Positions 1,866 through 51,653 of a stretch of DNA of 64,000 bases are shown piece by piece. The notes under the pieces were generated by a model. The model worked only from the letters and a program-made list of their open reading frames with translations, was not told the DNA's origin and searched no databases. Both the position numbers and the translations under genes were made by a program. The DNA is from Candidatus Giovannonibacteria bacterium (GTDB lineage Bacteria; Patescibacteriota; Minisyncoccia; UBA11713; 2-01-FULL-45-33), in NCBI GenBank assembly GCA_016176295.1, contig JACOXN010000004.1, forward strand, positions 6,655 through 70,654. Direction: 5' to 3'. Numbering within the stretch: the first letter of the stretch is position 1; the number at the start of each line of letters is the position of its first letter.

Positions 1866-3595
1866 ATCTTTTCCGGAGAGGATATGCCTAACAGACTAAG
1901 TCCTTTTGAAAGAGTTAAGGCCACGCCGTTAATTAAATTGACTCGAAACATCTTTTTTGACACGTTGTTTTCCTGCGTTACCGGATGTGAATGGTAAAAG
2001 TTGTTGGCTAACTGCGCTAATTGGTTTAAATAGTTGGCAAGAATATTAGGCATGAAATCATTCAGGGCATCTTCTATAACTTCCGGAAAACACAATACGG
2101 AAGCAATTAAATTCTTTTCCACCTGATCCAGCTCGACGTCTTCAACCATAAAGCCTGACTTTCCTTCCAGTTTACGCAATATACTCTTCAATCTCGCATA
2201 TGTGTACTGCAAATACGGACCGGAATTACCCGCAAAAGACAACGCTTCATCCCATTTAAAAACTATATCAGAATGCCGGTTATGAGAAAGATCAAAGTAT
2301 TTTAGGGCACCCAAACCGACCTGCTTCGCTATTTCTTCTTTATTTTCCAATTCAGGATTTTTTTCCTCAATTATCTGAAGAGCTCTTTTTTCTGACTCAT
2401 CCAAGACAGCATCCAAAGAAATGACAGTGCCTTTTCGCGTGCTGATTGTGCCTTCAGGTAAAGACATGAACCCATAAGAAATATGATCACTCTCGCCCAC
2501 TCCTTCAAACCCGAGCAGCTCGGCAACTTTAAAAACCTGTTTAAAATGATGTTCCTGTCTAACATCGACAACGTAGAGATTTTTATAAAAATCCCATTCT
2601 TTTTTTCTATATTTAATAGTTGCGAGGTCGCGCAAAAGATATGTTGATGCTCCGTCAGTCTTAATAAGTATGGCTTCGTCCAAATTATAACTAATCAGAT
2701 CTACTATTATTGCTCCGTCTTTATTTATTGCAATTCCTTTTTCAAGAGCCTCTTTAACAATAAGCGGCATCATATCGTTATATTCACTTTCACCTCTTTC
2801 TTCTTCAAACTGTAGAAGGTCAAAACGATTTATAATTCTTTGAATTTCATTTTCTGTTCCTACCTTAAGCCATTCCCAGATTACTCGGTTTTCTGAATCA
2901 CCGTTTTCGAGTTTAGCGAACTCTTCTTTAGCTTTTTCGCGTAAAATAGGTTCTTTTTCAATTCTTTCGTTTTCTTCAACATAAAGACGTTCGAGTAGCT
3001 TTATTGTCGGGTCCGCAGTAATCGCATATGACTTTGACGTTCGGGGCAGTTGTTTAGTTAAAGAAATTTCGTTTCTTTTAAATGCCTGAATCAAAATGCC
3101 AAACTGTGTTCCCCAATCTCCGATATGAGTATCAGAAATAGTTTTATATCCTTGTGTTTTTAAAATTCGTTTCAAGGCATCGCCAATAACTGCCGAACGC
3201 AGATGTCCCACATGAGACGGTTTTCCTACATTCAATTGAAAATATTCAACAATTATCTTTTTACCTATTCCTACAGGTCTATCACCCCATTTTTTCTGTT
3301 TTTTTAAAACTTCTCGAAGCCCCCCAATCAGCGATTCTTTTGAAATATAAAAATTCAAAAAACCGGGTCCGGCTATCTCAATCTTTTCCAGCCGCTTGGC
3401 AATCGGATTGCCAAGGAGTTTCTTCTTTATCTCCTCTGCCGTCTCTTTGGGATTCCGGCCTTCTTTCTTTTCCAGGATTAATGCGATATTTGTGGAATAG
3501 TCGCCGTACTCCGGCTTTTCGGTGGCAGAAACGGAAAAAACCGTCCCTGCCGGCGCCAATTTTTCAAGCTCTTTTTTTATAATTTGCCTGAACAC
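1862..3595 (-). CDS. argS: arginine--tRNA ligase
   Basis: 577 aa. HVGH class-I HIGH motif (PSHVGHLRSAV). C-terminal DALR anticodon-binding region (DALNDFMPNILANYLNQLAQ). Confidence 0.85.
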   Translation of the reverse strand: MFRQIIKKELEKLAPAGTVFSVSATEKPEYGDYSTNIALILEKKEGRNPKETAEEIKKKLLGNPIAKRLEKIEIAGPGFLNFYISKESLIGGLREVLKKQKKWGDRPVGIGKKIIVEYFQLNVGKPSHVGHLRSAVIGDALKRILKTQGYKTISDTHIGDWGTQFGILIQAFKRNEISLTKQLPRTSKSYAITADPTIKLLERLYVEENERIEKEPILREKAKEEFAKLENGDSENRVIWEWLKVGTENEIQRIINRFDLLQFEEERGESEYNDMMPLIVKEALEKGIAINKDGAIIVDLISYNLDEAILIKTDGASTYLLRDLATIKYRKKEWDFYKNLYVVDVRQEHHFKQVFKVAELLGFEGVGESDHISYGFMSLPEGTISTRKGTVISLDAVLDESEKRALQIIEEKNPELENKEEIAKQVGLGALKYFDLSHNRHSDIVFKWDEALSFAGNSGPYLQYTYARLKSILRKLEGKSGFMVEDVELDQVEKNLIASVLCFPEVIEDALNDFMPNILANYLNQLAQLANNFYHSHPVTQENNVSKKMFRVNLINGVALTLSKGLSLLGISSPEKM

Positions 3596-4327: not shown

Positions 4328-4780
4328 TTACCGGCTCATACGGCCTGAAACTTTTCCCAGCGAAAATATTTCTTGTGTCGTTTTCTCAACCGCTTCTTTG
4401 AACCAGGTTTCTTCCGCGTCCTTCACGACCCGGCGGCCTCTTTTTAACTGCTTTTTGTAGAGTCTGTGCGCCGGGGATAAAAAATGTCTATCGTACATTA
4501 TCGGGCCGCCGACCGCGGCAACCGGGTAGACATCGATTATTTTCCCGGAAGGCAGCGTGACCCAGCTGTGCTCGTAAGCGGTTAAAAAATGTCCATCGAC
4601 AAAATCAAGACCGAATACACGGGCTATCGCTCTCGCCAAAATGTGACACGAGAGCACGATGTCCTTGCCATCATCATCCTTTCCAAGATGAAGCCCCGGC
4701 ATCGCTTCGACAATTTTTTTTATCTGCAAATAAGTTTTCATTTCTTCCAAAGAAACGAATTCGGAAGCATAAGAAATCAT
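4328..4780 (-). CDS. hypothetical protein (conserved Cys...His pair, possible papain-like fold)
   Basis: ORF track. No recognisable family. Confidence 0.3.
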   Translation of the reverse strand: MISYASEFVSLEEMKTYLQIKKIVEAMPGLHLGKDDDGKDIVLSCHILARAIARVFGLDFVDGHFLTAYEHSWVTLPSGKIIDVYPVAAVGGPIMYDRHFLSPAHRLYKKQLKRGRRVVKDAEETWFKEAVEKTTQEIFSLGKVSGRMSR

Positions 4781-4942: not shown

Positions 4943-6331
4943 TTGAAAGTGAAGAAATTGACGTTTGACGGCAAAGGCGAAATCGGGGGTTCCAATTACT
5001 GTTACAACGGTACTATCGGCGTCGACCACGGTGCTATCCAAGGAAAGAAGAAAATTTCATATCCCGCGCCAAACGGAGTGTCCCCGCTCGTTGTCATAGC
5101 CTCCCATTCTCACATTGATCACATCGGAGGATTCGCGTGCCTAGCAAAGCATCGTCCGGAAGCCAAATTCTTCATGACACAGACGACTCTGGACGGAATG
5201 ATATTGTTACTCAACGATTCTCTGAAGATCGCGCGTAGCCAGGCCGAGTTCAATTCACTGAAAGGGCTCCCGTCGGAGCCGCCGGCATTCGAAGAAGAAG
5301 ATATCAGTCACGTTGAAAGCCAAACCGAAATAATAAAAAATATCGGTTGGTTCGAACCCGTGAAAGGATATCATCTTTCACTCCGCTCCGCCGGCCACAT
5401 GCGCGGAGCATCCATTGAGCTCATGGTTACGCCGGACGGAACGAGAGTGGTTCACGCGGCGGATATCTCGGTGGAAGAGAGGGCTTTGGTAAGAGGGGCC
5501 GCGGTCCCGAAAGATTTCCTTAACCCGGATGTCCTGGTCATCGAATCAACTTACGGCTCGAAAGAACTCCCGGACCTAAAAGGAGAAAAAGATAAGTTGA
5601 TCTCCGTCACAAAGGAAACGCTCAAAAAAGGCGGGAGCGTCCTCGTCGGACATTTTGCCTCGATGCTGGACAACATAGTGATCCCTTTAGCTGAAGCTAA
5701 AATACAAGTTTATGTTGACGGCATGGGCAGACAATTTCTGAGAATTTACGCGGCGGCAAAAAACTGGTGCCCCGAAGACAGGCCGTTCTCGCTTTCCGGT
5801 TACGATAATGTACATTTCATCGATCCTGACCGCGGTACAGCGACAGCGCAGAGAAAAAAGCTGTTGAGTGGTAAGCTAAAAGGGGCCATTGTGTGTCCTT
5901 CCGGAATGTACGAAGGAGGACATTCGGTCACATACATCAAGCAATTAATGGAATCCCGCAAAAATACAATCATCATGCCGGGATTCCAGGCTGACGAAAC
6001 TCAAGGTCGGGAGATTCAGGAAGCTGAGTCCGGAGACCTGATCGATTTCAAATGCGAGCGCGTGATGAAAATAAACGAGAAAAAAGAGGCGAAAGAATGG
6101 CATGAGTACCGAAGGCTAAACGCGCCTGTCGTACAAATAAAATACTCCGGCCATTCAGGCGGCGATAAAATGGCCAAGTGGGTCGCCGAGCTCAACCCCA
6201 AAAAAGTGGTAACTGTGCACGGCGATCCGGAGGGACATGAGGGGCTAAAAGACCGGATCCATCGCCTGAACAGAAATATCGATGTCGTGCGGGCAACCGG
6301 CGAGACAATCAAGTTCTCTTTTCGCAGTTAA
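4943..6331 (+). CDS. MBL-fold metallo-hydrolase, beta-CASP RNA-metabolising family (RNase J/CPSF-like), paralog 1
   Basis: HSHIDHIGG (HxHxDH) motif. 462 aa. A terminator hairpin follows. Confidence 0.6.
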   Translation: MKVKKLTFDGKGEIGGSNYCYNGTIGVDHGAIQGKKKISYPAPNGVSPLVVIASHSHIDHIGGFACLAKHRPEAKFFMTQTTLDGMILLLNDSLKIARSQAEFNSLKGLPSEPPAFEEEDISHVESQTEIIKNIGWFEPVKGYHLSLRSAGHMRGASIELMVTPDGTRVVHAADISVEERALVRGAAVPKDFLNPDVLVIESTYGSKELPDLKGEKDKLISVTKETLKKGGSVLVGHFASMLDNIVIPLAEAKIQVYVDGMGRQFLRIYAAAKNWCPEDRPFSLSGYDNVHFIDPDRGTATAQRKKLLSGKLKGAIVCPSGMYEGGHSVTYIKQLMESRKNTIIMPGFQADETQGREIQEAESGDLIDFKCERVMKINEKKEAKEWHEYRRLNAPVVQIKYSGHSGGDKMAKWVAELNPKKVVTVHGDPEGHEGLKDRIHRLNRNIDVVRATGETIKFSFRS

Positions 6332-8777: not shown

Positions 8778-9165
8778 GGGGATGATTGGCCTCGAGGAGA
8801 GACGAATTTCATGCGCTCAGGCAGAGGATGTACGGTCACCTCTTTAAACATCCATACAAATCAATAAGTGCAAACTTATTTTCAAAGGCTAGGAACGTTG
8901 TTGCTTCCCTCTTCGGAGGTGTAGGCACGGCTGCTCTTCAACCTTCTTACGCTTTGGCGTAAGCATCTGACTTTCCGATTCTCGCTGAGAGATGTTCAGG
9001 TGTAATATAGCGAGACAGCATTGAGGAAAAGCTTCCCGATTCAGTGCTCGCAAATAGGGAGCAAAATCCCCGCCAAAAGCTAATAAGCATTTAGGCGGGC
9101 AAGTAAGCTTGTCAACCGCATTTTAGGAACCTTTCCCACCCGGGTTCGATTCCCGGCATCTCCAC
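8778..9165 (+). ncRNA. ssrA: tmRNA (ssrA), CCA not encoded
   Basis: 5' GGGGATGATTGG... resembles the tmRNA 5' end. The 5' strand GGGGATG pairs with the 3' strand CATCTCC (one G-U) to close an acceptor stem. Tag reading frame begins GCA AAC 93 nt from the 5' end (8870) and ends ...CCT TCT TAC GCT TTG GCG TAA (tag ending PSYALA). The 3' tRNA-like T-arm is CCGGG-TTCGATT-CCCGG. Lies directly downstream of smpB. Confidence 0.75.
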
Positions 9166-9171
9166 AAATTA

Positions 9172-47067: not shown

Positions 47068-47252
47068 TTGGTTCTTTAAAACAAAACGAGCGGGTCAACC
47101 CCGCCCGGTAATACAACCAAAAATACGGAATTTAAACCTTTACCCGCCTAATTTTGCTCCGCAATATTGGCGGGTCCTTTTATGGATTTTTCGTTCATTT
47201 CTCACAAGTAATAAGATACTAGCACATTGATTTTCGGAGCGCAAGAGTGCGC

Positions 47253-47489
47253 TTATTTATAGGTATTATCGTTTCTGCGTTCGATTGCCAGCAAGAATAT
47301 CTTTTTATTAGCGATGCGATAAATAATCCGAATATTTCCTTTACGAATCCGAAAAATATCATTTCTACCCTTAAGTTTTTTAATATCCAGATCATCCAGC
47401 CGATCTTTTTTGATCCGCATCAAAATATCTCTTACCCATTCCCTCTCCTTGGGTGACAACCGAGCGAGAGCTTTATCGATGCGGTCCAT
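47253..47489 (-). CDS. RelE/ParE-superfamily type II toxin
   Basis: 78 aa, C-terminal GNIRIIYRIANKKIFLLAIERRNDNTYK (RIIY...IL.I.HR..Y signature). 3-nt gap after the upstream antitoxin. Confidence 0.65.
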   Translation of the reverse strand: MDRIDKALARLSPKEREWVRDILMRIKKDRLDDLDIKKLKGRNDIFRIRKGNIRIIYRIANKKIFLLAIERRNDNTYK

Positions 47490-47492
47490 AAT

Positions 47493-47735
47493 TTAGAGGC
47501 GTGACAAAATTTGGCTCAATTCCACACCTCCTTTTTTAAATTTAGTGAAATCAACGGCGGTCTCCCACACACCTTCCCCTTCATCAACCGGAGTGATATT
47601 AAACACCGGCTCCGAACGACGAATCACGGTAAATGATTTGCCTTTGTTGATTTCGGAAATATAACTCTCCATGTGTTCTCTTAACTCTTTTAGCCCAACA
47701 AACTTATCTTTGGTATTGATTTTGTTCATACGCAT
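47493..47735 (-). CDS. Phd/YefM-like antitoxin (true start possibly the second ATG at 47729)
   Basis: 80 aa, VGLKELREHMESYISEINKGKSFTVIRRSEPVFNITPVDE pattern. Sits immediately upstream of the toxin. Confidence 0.5.
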   Translation of the reverse strand: MRMNKINTKDKFVGLKELREHMESYISEINKGKSFTVIRRSEPVFNITPVDEGEGVWETAVDFTKFKKGGVELSQILSRL

Positions 47736-47765
47736 AAGTTTATCTTAAGATAAACTTCGTGTCAA
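47736..47765 (-). promoter_or_regulatory. perfect 22-bp palindrome AAGTTTATCTT|AAGATAAACTT (47736-47757) overlapping a TTGACA-17-TAAACT promoter: putative TA operator, leaderless start
   Basis: The palindrome abuts the antitoxin ATG. On the minus strand -35 TTGACA is at 47760-47765 and -10 TAAACT at 47737-47742, which puts the transcription start at the second ATG (47729). Confidence 0.5.
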
Positions 47766-47782: not shown

Positions 47783-48373
47783 TTACCCCCTCACTTCGAG
47801 CAGGGTTCCGCGGTTGCCGGGAACGGCACCTTCAACGGCCATCATGTTCCGGTCGGGAATGATTTTTATTACCTTGAGATTTTTTACCGTTATCCTGTCG
47901 CCTCCCATTCTTCCCGCCATGCGCTTCCCTTTCAAAACCCTCTGCGGCCAGACTGCTCCGATAGAACCCGGCTCACGCTCCGAGTGCTTTTGGCCGTGAG
48001 TGCGTCGGCCTCCTTTAAATCCGTGCCTTTTTACCACACCCTGAAATCCTTTTCCCTTGGTTATGCCGGAAATATTTACCTTCTCTCCTTCCTTGAAAGT
48101 TTCAACTGTAATTTTGTCCCCCACATTGAGGTCGGAAACATCCCGGGCTTCCCTGAAATATCTGTAATTTCCAAGCTTTTTCTGGGGCTTTTTGGCTCTC
48201 TTATCTTTTTTGGAGCCAAACCCAATCTGCACGGCGATATATCCGTCCTTTTCCTTAGTTTTAGGCTGTGTCACAAATATCGGACCGGCCTCAAGCCAGG
48301 TAACGGGGTGTATCTTCCCGACATCGTCGAATATCTGGGACATTTCTATTTTTTTAGCGAGAATGAATTTCAT
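47783..48373 (-). CDS. rplC: 50S ribosomal protein L3
   Basis: MKFILAKKIEMSQIFDDVGKIHPVTWLEAGP. Confidence 0.9.
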   Translation of the reverse strand: MKFILAKKIEMSQIFDDVGKIHPVTWLEAGPIFVTQPKTKEKDGYIAVQIGFGSKKDKRAKKPQKKLGNYRYFREARDVSDLNVGDKITVETFKEGEKVNISGITKGKGFQGVVKRHGFKGGRRTHGQKHSEREPGSIGAVWPQRVLKGKRMAGRMGGDRITVKNLKVIKIIPDRNMMAVEGAVPGNRGTLLEVRG

Positions 48374-48497
48374 AGCAATTGAAGAATATCATATTATAAA
48401 CCTTGCAAAAAAGCAAACAATACGCTAATAAAAGTGAGGCGGAGCAGGAAGCACATTAACAACCCACATGCTGCCCAGGCGGCAGCTAGGAGGAAAT

Positions 48498-49676
48498 ATG
48501 GAACATTCCCAGGCGGAATTGTTGAGAAAGTTAAGCAAAATATACGACGAGCCGGAATTGATTTCAATTGTAAATCTTTGCGGCACCCCGTCATTAGCTG
48601 AGGAGATAGCGGAAAGGCTTGAATACCCGACCTCGCTGCTTCGAGAAACACGCTACGCCGGCATTCTAAAGAAAGACTTTCCAGAAATTTACGCGAAGAC
48701 AGTCCAAAAGATCATGCCACTCTGCTTTAATATGAACAAAAAAGACAGGACAAAAACCAAACATTTTTCCTGTAATTGGACCTCTCGTGAAAAAACTAAC
48801 GAATTTGAACTGGCAGGCACCATGCTAATAACTCCACATGCATTTCTCCCGCCGGTTTTTTGGGATTATGAATTGTTTTTTGAAAAAAACAACGAACTTG
48901 TTTTTTCGTCTAAAACCGCAATTCCGGCACACAAGAGAACAGACGTAAGATGCATCTTTACCGAAGGTTCTCGATCAATTCCTGTCGGCCTGCTGCTGGT
49001 CTGCAACAAACACAGTAACGAATTCACATTTCGCAGAACAATAAAAGACGACGAAACGTACTGGTGGAGCAGAACTAATCCGGTGGGCAATAGGCTTACG
49101 CTTGGGCTAAAGGGCGAAATATTTGGGGCAGGAATTGAAAAAAAGTCCTATAACAATGTGCATCGGCAAGTTACGCTTCGTACCCTTGGCGACACTGAGA
49201 AAAAGTTACTTGAACCGTGGGACACTACATACTTACCAAGATGTGTTATCTATCATCTTGTTCTGGAGGAACAGCTATGGTATCCGGACGGCCAGGGTGG
49301 AAGCCTACGGTATTCGCTAGAAATGAGATATAAGCCGCATGCAGACAACTTGCAAGAAAAAAAAGATACACTGGCCTCTCGAGTAATATTCCATATGCCT
49401 TTTAATCACTATGCGTATAATACCGGGCCAGACTACAAAATCTTAACTTCCGTATTCCAAATAGACCGCGCACCGGAGCCTACAAGCAATAGGGAGAAGT
49501 TTGCCGACCGCGTGGCAAAAATGCTCAAAGGCACGCCAGAACAAATAGAATTCCTGCCAACTCTCCAAAATTTTTTTTCTTTTAAACGAAATAGTGATTT
49601 TTTTGAAATTTATAACGAGGGAGCACATTGGGATCCTCTTGTGCTTCCTAAAACAAAAGAAGCTAAAGCCGAATAA
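48498..49676 (+). CDS. hypothetical protein (~392 aa), opposite strand, inserted between rpsJ and rplC
   Basis: AGGAGG RBS 4 nt before the ATG at 48498. Lower-GC coding sequence. Bounded downstream by stacked hairpin terminators. No family recognised. Confidence 0.55.
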   Translation: MEHSQAELLRKLSKIYDEPELISIVNLCGTPSLAEEIAERLEYPTSLLRETRYAGILKKDFPEIYAKTVQKIMPLCFNMNKKDRTKTKHFSCNWTSREKTNEFELAGTMLITPHAFLPPVFWDYELFFEKNNELVFSSKTAIPAHKRTDVRCIFTEGSRSIPVGLLLVCNKHSNEFTFRRTIKDDETYWWSRTNPVGNRLTLGLKGEIFGAGIEKKSYNNVHRQVTLRTLGDTEKKLLEPWDTTYLPRCVIYHLVLEEQLWYPDGQGGSLRYSLEMRYKPHADNLQEKKDTLASRVIFHMPFNHYAYNTGPDYKILTSVFQIDRAPEPTSNREKFADRVAKMLKGTPEQIEFLPTLQNFFSFKRNSDFFEIYNEGAHWDPLVLPKTKEAKAE

Positions 49677-49817: not shown

Positions 49818-50225
49818 TCACATCTTCACCTCAATGTCCACTCCGGCGGGGAGGCTGAGGTTAGTCAGCGCGTCCACTATTTTGGGAACCGGGTTTAAAA
49901 TATCGATAACGCGCTTGTGAACCCGCATTTCGAACTGTTCTCTCGCGTTTTTGTGGACGAAAGAGGAGCGATTGACGGTATATTTCTTTATCTCTGTAGG
50001 CAGAGGTATGGGGCCCACGATGACGGCGCCGTACCGCAAGGCGGTATCCACAATCTGCTTGATGGATGCATCCAGTATTTTGTGATCATAAGCCCGCACA
50101 CGTATCCGCAGCTTCGCTTCAGCGCCTGCTTCTTGCTTTTCCACCTTTTTGGAATGGGCCTGCCTTGAATCTGGGCGGGTTTTTGAAACTTTCGGCGCTG
50201 ATTTAGTTTTTGGTTTGGTTGCCAT
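49818..50225 (-). CDS. rpsJ: 30S ribosomal protein S10 with ~38-aa basic N-terminal extension
   Basis: [70 protein letters not shown]. Confidence 0.85.
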
Positions 50226-50319: not shown

Positions 50320-51513
50320 TTATTTAAGAATTTTGGTTACCACTCCCGCGCCAACGGTCTTTCCTCCTTCGCGGATGGCAAAGCGCTGCTTTTCTTCCAA
50401 CGCCACCGGTGCTATCAACTTAACGTTGAATTTGACGGTGTCTCCCGGCATAACCATTTCGGTGCCCTCCGGAAGAGTTACTTCACCGGTCACATCCGTC
50501 GTCCTGATGTAGAACTGGGGCTTGTAGCCTGCGAAGAACGGCGTGTGCCGGCCTCCTTCTTCTTTTGTCAAAACGTATATTTCCGACTCGAATTCAGTGT
50601 GGGGAGTGACGGAATTGGGCTTGGACAAAACCTGCCCGCGCTCAACATCCTCTTTTTTCAATCCGCGGAGCAAGATTCCCGCATTGTCTCCCGCCATGCC
50701 TTTGTCCAGTTGCTTGTTGAACATTTCGATGCCGGTAACGGTAGTCTTTTGGGTATCTTTCAAGCCGACAACACTTACTTCCTCTCCGACTTTGACCTCA
50801 CCTCTCTCGATCCTTCCGGTCACGACCGTTCCTCTGCCTTCAATGGAGAATATGTCCTCGATGGGCATGAGGAAAGGCTTTTCAATGTCTCTTACGGGTT
50901 CGGGGATGTATTCGTCCAGGGTTTTTGCCAGTTCCAATATAGACTTTACCCACTCATCATCTTTGGAAGTAGCTGCCAGCGCTTTTAACGCCGAGCCCTT
51001 GATTATCGGAGTTGTGTCGCCCGGATAGTGGTATTTGGAAAGAAGCTCCCTTACTTCGGTTTCGACAAGGTCAATCAACTCTTTGTCGTCCACCATATCA
51101 ACCTTGTTCAAAAAAACGATTATGTTGGGCACTCCAACCTGGTGAGCGAGCAAAATGTGCTCTCTCGTTTGAGGCATTGGGCCGTCTGCAGCGGACACGA
51201 CCAAAATTGCGCCATCCATCTGAGCGGCTCCGGTGATCATGTTCTTGATGTAGTCAGCGTGCCCCGGAGCATCGATGTGCGCATAGTGGCGCTTTTCGGT
51301 TTCATACTCGGAGTGGTGAAGAGCGATAGTGATACCGCGCTGTCTTTCTTCCGGAGCTTTGTCTATATCATCAACTTTTTCAAGCTTTACTTTGAAACCC
51401 GCCAAATTTAGAGAATGCAAAATAGCGGCTGTTAAAGTAGTCTTGCCGTGGTCTACGTGACCAATAGTGCCCACGTTGAGGTGCGGCTTTGTCCGTTCAA
51501 ATTTCTCTGCCAT
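50320..51513 (-). CDS. tuf: elongation factor Tu
   Basis: [31 protein letters not shown] ... full-length EF-Tu. Confidence 0.95.
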
Positions 51514-51653
51514 ATATTTACAATATAAAATTGCCAATAAAAGACGCCCGAAAGCGTATGGCTATATATTACAGGCTGTAAAAATACTGTCAACCCCAGA
51601 GAAAGCAAAACATGGGAATAAAAAAAGCGGCATAGATACCGCCTGCAACTCGC

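Follow-up and report, generated by a model that had tools for sequence, protein, structure and literature searches.

The solved systems that most closely match both partners of the toxin-antitoxin (TA) pair considered here are RelBE1 and RelBE2 of Mycobacterium tuberculosis (9g12, 3g5o), in which an antitoxin of the Phd/YefM fold is paired with a toxin of the RelE fold. The same pairing is encoded by two small genes lying between rplC and rplD on the minus strand of a 64,000-nucleotide stretch of a Candidatus Giovannonibacteria genome (assembly GCA_016176295.1, contig JACOXN010000004.1; hereafter the window). Models of the two proteins match the mycobacterial chains (toxin to 9g12_B and 3g5o_B, antitoxin to 9g12_C and 3g5o_A), but identity is 9-22% and both the operator sequence and the genomic context differ. 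The best profile and fold matches of the toxin are archaeal, namely RelBE3 of Methanocaldococcus jannaschii (3bpq) and aRelE of Pyrococcus horikoshii (1wmi), with which it shares an alpha-alpha-beta4 fold and the basic motif (F/Y)R(I/A)R-G-(I/Y)R(I/V)IY. Here identity is about 27%, the host belongs to the bacterial Candidate Phyla Radiation (CPR), and the antitoxin has the Phd/YefM fold rather than being an archaeal RelB. The toxin also aligns to RelE of Escherichia coli RelBE (hhalign probability 76%), and the two systems would have an antitoxin-first, autoregulated operon in common; E. coli RelB, however, has the ribbon-helix-helix fold and is translated from an mRNA with a leader. The N-terminal DNA-binding fold of the antitoxin matches those of Phd-Doc from phage P1 and YefM-YoeB. 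Phd and YefM antitoxins bind palindromic operators that overlap their own promoters. These systems differ in their toxins (Doc and YoeB), whereas the putative operator in the window is a single 22-bp palindrome placed over the promoter spacer and -10, with a predicted leaderless transcript.

On the minus strand of the window the order of genes is tuf (50320-51537), rpsJ (49818-50225), rplC, the two small open reading frames (ORFs), rplD, rplW, rplB, rpsS, rplV and rpsC. The features of the TA cassette and its immediate neighbors are:

47783-48373, minus strand: rplC, ribosomal protein L3, 196 aa (Pfam PF00297, E = 1.7e-16)
47760-47765, minus strand: -35 hexamer TTGACA, from the promoter scan
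47736-47757, no strand: palindrome AAGTTTATCTTAAGATAAACTT, putative antitoxin operator, occupying the promoter spacer and including the -10
47737-47742, minus strand: -10 hexamer TAAACT, ending 7 nt upstream of the second antitoxin ATG (47729) and 1 nt upstream of the first (47735)
47493-47735, minus strand: antitoxin ORF, 80 aa if started at the first ATG, 78 aa if started at the second (47729)
47253-47489, minus strand: toxin ORF, 78 aa
46414-47067, minus strand: rplD, ribosomal protein L4, 217 aa (Pfam PF00573, E = 6e-56)

An earlier reading of the letters alone (hereafter the original prediction) had placed two small minus-strand genes between L3 and L4, and both ORFs are confirmed. As to spacing, 17 nt separate the rplC stop from the start of the cassette and 53 nt separate it from the second antitoxin ATG, the toxin ATG lies 3 nt past the antitoxin stop, and 185 nt lie between the toxin stop and the rplD ATG. 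The arrangement is unlikely to be an assembly artefact, since six independent Logan assemblies contain the identical TA pair, those that are long enough with the same flanks. rplC orthologues across Giovannonibacteria share 73-78% identity.

The locus is best explained as a functional type II TA operon of the Phd/YefM-RelE kind that has been in place since an ancestor and was inherited vertically, a reading that is given a probability of roughly 0.8. Its support comes from sequence features, from the families and folds of the two proteins, from a conserved operator and promoter geometry, from purifying selection, from the agreement of TA and species trees and from a presence/absence polymorphism. 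The pair is a further member of its TA family and brings no new mechanism; the main points of note are its long-held position beside rplC, the hotspot behavior of the junction and the flanking rplD leader.

The upstream protein has, in its AlphaFold2 (AF2) model, the Phd/YefM DNA-binding fold. The modeled elements (strand 9-12, helices 13-18 and 20-28, strands 33-37 and 40-45) follow a beta-alpha-alpha-beta-beta order, and residues 9-45 superpose on the N-terminal domains of Phd, VapB46, RelB1 and YefM with a root-mean-square deviation (rmsd) of 0.9-1.5 Å. The top 36 Foldseek matches are almost all of the Phd/YefM type (6jqy at 0.9 Å and 4zlx at 1.5 Å, also 9g12_C and 2a6q_B). Residues 46-78 are modeled with low confidence (predicted local distance difference test, pLDDT, 59-70) and end in a short terminal helix, as would be expected for a toxin-binding tail. 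More than 260 homologues were found, the majority with a precomputed match to PF02604 (PhdYeFM_antitox). The motif W-E-x-x-x-D-F-T-K-x-K-K-G-G is conserved, the ratio of nonsynonymous to synonymous substitution rates (dN/dS) is 0.03-0.13, and the antitoxin gene lies immediately upstream of the toxin gene in 79 of 80 metagenome loci.

The downstream protein is RelE-like, not ParE-like, on account of PHROG, homologue-profile, fold and catalytic-residue evidence, despite a sub-threshold Pfam score. PHROG 1213, “RelE-like toxin,” matches it over nearly its full length (E = 1.3e-9, 39.5 bits); PADLOC gave no match for either TA protein. Its 99 homologues are nearly all 77-83 aa long and come chiefly from Patescibacteria, and some are annotated RelE/ParE. 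When a profile of 35 homologues was compared with the PDB, the matches were M. jannaschii RelE3 (3bpq, 1e-6), P. horikoshii aRelE (1wmi, 8e-5) and E. coli RelE (9e-4). The AF2 model (pLDDT 88.7) has helices at residues 2-9 and 13-27 and then four strands, and thus contains the RelE fold of two N-terminal helices on a four-stranded antiparallel sheet. Its best Foldseek match is RelE3 (3bpq_B; TM score 0.78, rmsd 1.6 Å), with bacterial RelE proteins next. All 35 homologues keep R47, R49, R54 and Y77, and at least 90% of them keep R72. Alignment to E. coli RelE with hhalign equates R47 with K52, R54 with R61 and R72 with R81; Y77 is off Y87 by one residue, and the counterpart of K54 is ambiguous (R49 or K50). 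dN/dS for the two TA genes together spans 0.03-0.2. The toxin of the RelE/ParE superfamily that had been predicted at 47253-47489 is thereby borne out and can be described more precisely as RelE-like.

The palindrome forecast beside the antitoxin start is indeed a perfect 22-bp repeat (AAGTTTATCTT/AAGATAAACTT, 47736-47757), and it overlaps the anticipated promoter, TTGACA-17-TAAACT (47765-47737, score 10/12 in the promoter scan). It is the sole perfect palindrome with arms of at least 9 nt in the 64-kb window, where Markov-1 simulations predict 0.025 at an arm length of 11, and the window holds no second copy within 3 mismatches. The spacer between rplC and the antitoxin in four other Giovannonibacteria lineages reads TTGAC[AG]-N2-AAGTTTATCTTAAGATAAACT[TA]-N5-6-ATG. 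TTGAC[AG] is kept in 5/5 lineages with the ribosomal context, and the palindrome is identical in all five except for its last base in L172, though the flanking proteins are only 64-81% identical. The layout is also kept across the protein family, which was surveyed at 83 loci with 66 distinct upstream regions. Sixty-two of the 66 match the palindrome at 16/22 positions or better; in 44 of those 62 the palindrome ends 5-8 nt before the ATG and TTGAC stands 16-18 nt from the embedded -10. Operator positions G3, T5 and A7 and the mirror positions T16 and C20 are invariant family-wide, and A18 is present in 61/62. Ten operators carry a symmetric double change at the pair 6/17, and tandem copies occur at some loci. 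As the left half-site (G3/T5/A7) lies within the promoter spacer, its invariance is not explained by promoter function alone, and operator conservation follows the pattern expected where a dimeric protein binds. The autoregulated arrangement proposed by the original prediction is therefore well matched by this sigma-70-type promoter and its conserved palindrome.

Which ATG starts the antitoxin? The first (47735) is specific to the window lineage and missing in four relatives, and, starting 1 nt past the -10, it is necessarily excluded from any transcript that the TA promoter makes. The distance from the end of the -10 to the ATG is 7 nt in the window, counted to 47729, 6 nt in the four relatives and 6-9 nt in the 44 family loci, and NCBI and Logan gene calls both give an antitoxin of 78 aa. 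The relatives, the -10 geometry and the gene calls together indicate that the start is the second ATG, at 47729. The layout of promoter, operator and ATG supports autoregulation and a leaderless mRNA from 47729, much as had been proposed. A literature search for leaderless mRNAs in CPR bacteria, of incomplete coverage, yielded nothing relevant. The organism seems to use Shine-Dalgarno (SD)-independent initiation widely.

The original prediction regarded the cassette as an acquired insert and stated that relatives with the same pair at this site would instead make it ancestral. A synteny comparison of rplC-rplD found such relatives, with the TA pair directly after rplC in four further Giovannonibacteria lineages: L001 (from GCA_030688645.1), L092, L172 and L173 (with L174 and L175). 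The closest toxin homologues (64-72% identity) all lie directly after rplC and before rplD in those four lineages; the remaining 75 of 80 metagenome loci with family members have no L3 or L4 nearby. Ribosomal proteins of the five TA-bearing lineages are only 67-83% identical, yet the cassette sits at the same point. In a tree of L3, L4, L23 and L2 the window branches off before all other sampled Giovannonibacteria (100% bootstrap) and the remaining TA-bearing lineages fall in the clade (L173,(L172,(L001,L179))). In a tree of 71 concatenated antitoxin and toxin pairs those with ribosomal context are monophyletic (93.5% bootstrap), and their topology, (window,((L001,L172),(L173,L092))), matches the ribosomal-protein tree. 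Nonsynonymous divergence (dN) from the window is comparable for the antitoxin (0.12-0.13), the toxin (0.22-0.24) and L3 (0.18-0.20). The ribosomal proteins of L179 and L001 share 93% identity, yet L179 is missing precisely the cassette, and its rplC stop leads straight into the terminator that follows the toxin in L001. Since four other lineages carry the pair after rplC and the two trees match, the cassette appears ancestral to a clade rather than recently acquired, and the claim of an acquired insert does not stand.

One pair of TA-bearing lineages differs within the toxin gene itself. L092 (3893-4129) and L173 (2246-2482) have identical L3, antitoxins 99% identical and toxins only 87% identical. 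The differences are limited to the 3' half of the toxin gene, and the terminator after it differs, a pattern that suggests recombination with a breakpoint within that gene.

The rplC-rplD junction had been described as normally tight, which holds outside the clade and fails within it. Between tblastn HSP (high-scoring segment pair) ends, the L3-L4 gap is about 9-134 bp in 80 other genomes and about 719 bp here, which makes the TA arrangement unusual for bacteria generally. This baseline comes from the L4 search, among the matches listed, and consists of distant relatives only (at most 52% identity; about 20 Patescibacteria, the rest mostly Nitrospirota, Clostridia and others). Inside Giovannonibacteria even the empty junctions are 150-171 nt long, with a terminator, a promoter for rplD and a leader, and other cargo occupies most of the junctions:

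L176: empty, 150 nt
L177: empty, 171 nt
L178 (4622-6564): a weak HigB-like gene, then DUF7718 and DUF5647 genes and two unannotated ORFs (68 and 203 aa)
L179: reverse-strand genes of 217 aa and 51 aa
L180: two small ORFs between direct repeats of the rplC 3' end (63 nt, 81% identical)
L181: HicAB (HicB/HicA, 3043-3515) and two small ORFs
L173: HicAB (HicB/HicA, 2917-3390) besides Phd-RelE

In L182 small ORFs also follow rplC, and the contig stops before rplD. The L180 repeats lie at 4571-4633 and 5204-5266, and shorter remnants of the rplC 3' end are found within the cargo, or at its distal edge, in L178 (5093-5128), L179 (5368-5394) and L001 (4995-5017). These partial direct repeats suggest repeated integration at the rplC 3' end. 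By comparison of these sequences, then, the junction in Giovannonibacteria is an operon boundary and a cargo hotspot, which in this clade has repeatedly captured TA modules (Phd-RelE, HicAB and a HigB-like gene).

Such a hotspot, at which relatives carry partly duplicated rplC 3' ends, is also what would favor a mobile TA cassette recently inserted into an otherwise tight junction, as would the tightness of the junction in the 80 genomes from outside Giovannonibacteria, the GC content of the TA genes (38-40% against a window mean of 46%) and the unrelated contexts of 75 of the 80 metagenome loci. Recent insertion is nevertheless quite unlikely and is largely refuted by the insertion point shared among five diverged lineages, by the agreement of the TA tree with the species tree and by a TA dN about equal to that of L3. 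No integrase, transposase or flanking repeats occur near the cassette in the window, and tblastn of the toxin against phage and plasmid collections gave no match, both of which count against recent insertion.

Several points weigh against a functional, ancestral and vertically inherited TA operon. A search for both families with profile hidden Markov models, as the original prediction had suggested, gave a divided result. For the toxin PHROG 1213 matched and the single-sequence Pfam search against PF05016 (ParE_toxin) reached 20.4 bits, under the cutoff of 23, although 27/35 homologues match that model; NCBIfam gave nothing significant. For the antitoxin PF02604 is matched by 30/30 aligned homologues at E < 0.01 (best 1.4e-7), which bears out the proposed Phd/YefM type along with the N-terminal fold matches, but the window sequence itself scores 18.7 bits, under the cutoff of 29.8, and reaches only 14.3 bits with NCBIfam TIGR01552 (cutoff 20.8). 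The right half of the operator doubles as the -10, so that conservation there could be partly promoter-driven. SD-like 4-mers upstream of starts are at background (14.5% vs 15.8%, for window ORFs of at least 120 aa with starts called crudely); absence of an SD motif is thus no evidence for a leaderless mRNA, and only the promoter geometry speaks for it. The trees are neighbor-joining trees with few taxa. The cassette is patchy, being found in 5/12 sampled lineages; L176, L177, L178, L179, L180 and L181 lack it, the short piece of L182 sequence does not show it either, and a single ancestry therefore needs at least three losses; transfer among Giovannonibacteria by homologous recombination may be an alternative to these. 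The GC content of the TA genes, 6-9 points below the window mean, is a further point of this kind.

How might the cassette work? By analogy with known Phd/YefM and RelE systems, a dimer of the 78-aa antitoxin, alone or toxin-bound, would bind the 22-bp palindrome, occlude the -10 and repress its own promoter. Transcripts would begin at, or about 2 nt from, the A of the ATG at 47729 and so be leaderless, and the toxin would probably be translated by termination-reinitiation, given that its ATG comes 3 nt after the antitoxin stop. On depletion of the antitoxin, free RelE is expected to cleave mRNA in the ribosomal A site and thereby arrest translation. Neither a terminator scan nor comparison of lineages found a terminator between rplC and the cassette, and because none intervenes, polymerase reading through from rplC would also transcribe the TA genes. 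The cassette would thus follow the rplC stop but precede the point at which the rplC transcription unit ends in relatives, with rplD and later genes served by their own promoter and terminator-bearing leader. It would have entered once, in the ancestor of the sampled Giovannonibacteria, and been passed on vertically under purifying selection with loss in some lineages, while the same junction gathered other small cargo in relatives. The sequence between toxin and rplD contains:

47238-47253, minus strand: hairpin AGCGCA-CUCU-UGCGCU immediately past the toxin stop, lacking a U-tract and overlapping the rplD -35 (RNAfold -8.2 kcal/mol)
47216-47244, minus strand: putative rplD promoter, TTGCGC-17-TAGTAT with extended -10 (TGc); -35 at 47244-47239, -10 at 47221-47216
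47068-47209, minus strand: rplD leader, about 140 nt, with a 5' motif, a terminator-like hairpin and a T-tract

Long retention right after rplC under purifying selection, with no terminator in between, could also mean that the pair, once domesticated, came to regulate the ribosomal-protein cluster. Fused to rplC, it would tie RelE activity or downstream expression to transcription of the operon, the bound operator acting as a roadblock or valve before rplD. In the window, moreover, the hairpin after the toxin has no U-tract, and transcripts could run into the rplD leader. This possibility is judged improbable. The cassette is dispensable, lost or absent in at least six related lineages and cleanly lost in L179; the same architecture of promoter, operator and genes recurs in dozens of unrelated contexts; and in 4/5 lineages (L001, L172, L173 and L092) a strong post-toxin terminator of -15 to -16 kcal/mol with a T-run, of which the window keeps just the 6-bp hairpin, insulates the cassette from rplD.

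Within the TA operon favored here, a toxin that is a ParE-type gyrase poison rather than a RelE-type mRNA endonuclease would be very unlikely. The sole Pfam match is to a model named ParE_toxin, and ParE structures do occur lower down the Foldseek list. They rank, however, under every RelE and have E > 0.5, and PF05016 presumably covers the entire RelE/ParE superfamily. RelE proteins supply every one of the best matches by sequence and by fold (3bpq, 1wmi, 4v7k, 2khe, 9g12 and 3g5o), PHROG names the family RelE-like, the basic residues and C-terminal Tyr that match the RelE catalytic set are invariant or nearly so, and at 78 aa the protein is shorter than the matched ParE chains (88-96 residues). 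ParE identity was accordingly rejected. A palindrome that acts as an RNA hairpin, to terminate or process rplC transcripts, and not as a protein-binding operator is scarcely credible and was likewise rejected, for although it lies 25 nt past the rplC stop and would form an 11-bp stem in RNA, that stem is A/U-rich, lacks a loop and a U-tract behind it and was not called by the terminator scan, while the palindrome accompanies the antitoxin gene in family members far from rplC and would be excluded from transcripts of the cassette's own promoter.

From rplD onward the cluster looks like a separate unit behind an attenuator-like leader. Upstream sequence of rplD was available for ten lineages (the window, L001, L172, L173 and L176-L181), and in all ten, those without the TA pair included, it carries CTTGCR-N14-TGCTAnnAT. 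The leader motif ACTTGTGAGAA at its 5' end in the window (47209-47199) is conserved in the ten as ACTTGTG(G/A)GAA. A hairpin at 47107-47087 (8 pairs, 7 of them G-C, by terminator scan) is followed by a T-tract to 47077, 9 nt before the rplD ATG, and a G+C-rich hairpin with a T-run precedes this ATG in all ten lineages, with stem sequences that vary and energies of -8 to -18 kcal/mol. RNAalifold on a MAFFT alignment of eight rplD leaders gave no consensus pairs because the variable middle parts fail to align, and the conserved terminator was for this reason judged from per-sequence folds. A leader-peptide mechanism was dropped, as a 16-codon ORF seen by eye in the window leader is not conserved in relatives. 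L001 (about 5600-5725) and L179 (about 5735-5859) each have an additional stretch of about 110 nt between the T-tract of the leader and the rplD ATG; it is full of inverted repeats and may be a miniature inverted-repeat element.

The leader is a candidate L4-type attenuator, by analogy with the E. coli S10-operon leader, through which L4-mediated attenuation acts. As there, a leader of about 140 nt with a terminator hairpin stands just upstream of a ribosomal-protein cluster that includes rplD. It differs in preceding rplD and not rpsJ, in showing no sequence or Rfam similarity and in that its response to L4 is putative. No Rfam family was assigned to it: hits near the locus at E <= 10 are at chance level only (e.g., L20_leader, 19.7 bits vs a cutoff of 58.7), and at the gathering threshold the only match in the window is a tmRNA gene (8778-9167, plus strand; RF00023, 85.6 bits). 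A fuller account would have the S10 cluster split into rpsJ, cargo, rplC-phd-relE, cargo and rplD onward, with RelE an inherited, rplC-fused passenger that couples a ribosome-dependent mRNase to operon transcription and the rplD leader a previously undescribed L4-type attenuator. As a whole this is doubtful.

The locus places a TA module, apparently long held, inside the most conserved gene cluster in bacteria. No paper on TA modules inside S10 or other ribosomal-protein operons was found, within incomplete literature coverage. One architecture of operator, promoter and predicted leaderless start appears to run across a CPR-wide TA family, which provides a clean, testable consensus (nnGnTnA...TnAnCnn). 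Beside it, rplD seems to have gained its own promoter and a terminator-bearing leader, a candidate new autoregulatory RNA for ribosomal proteins in an uncultivated phylum in which regulation is almost unknown.

The junction between rpsJ and rplC holds cargo of its own. In the window a 402-aa ORF on the opposite strand (48468-49676, plus strand) splits the two genes; it has no match in Pfam, NCBIfam, PADLOC or PHROG and only 25 relatives in 1.8 billion representative proteins. At the same junction L001 and L181 carry a bAvd and reverse-transcriptase pair (a diversity-generating retroelement, DGR) and L173 a HATPase_c_2/DUF4325 gene. In L026 (519-3319), a Saccharibacteria genome and thus a distant member of the Patescibacteria, rpsJ and rplC are about 2.5 kb apart, and interruption of the S10 cluster is thus not confined to Giovannonibacteria.

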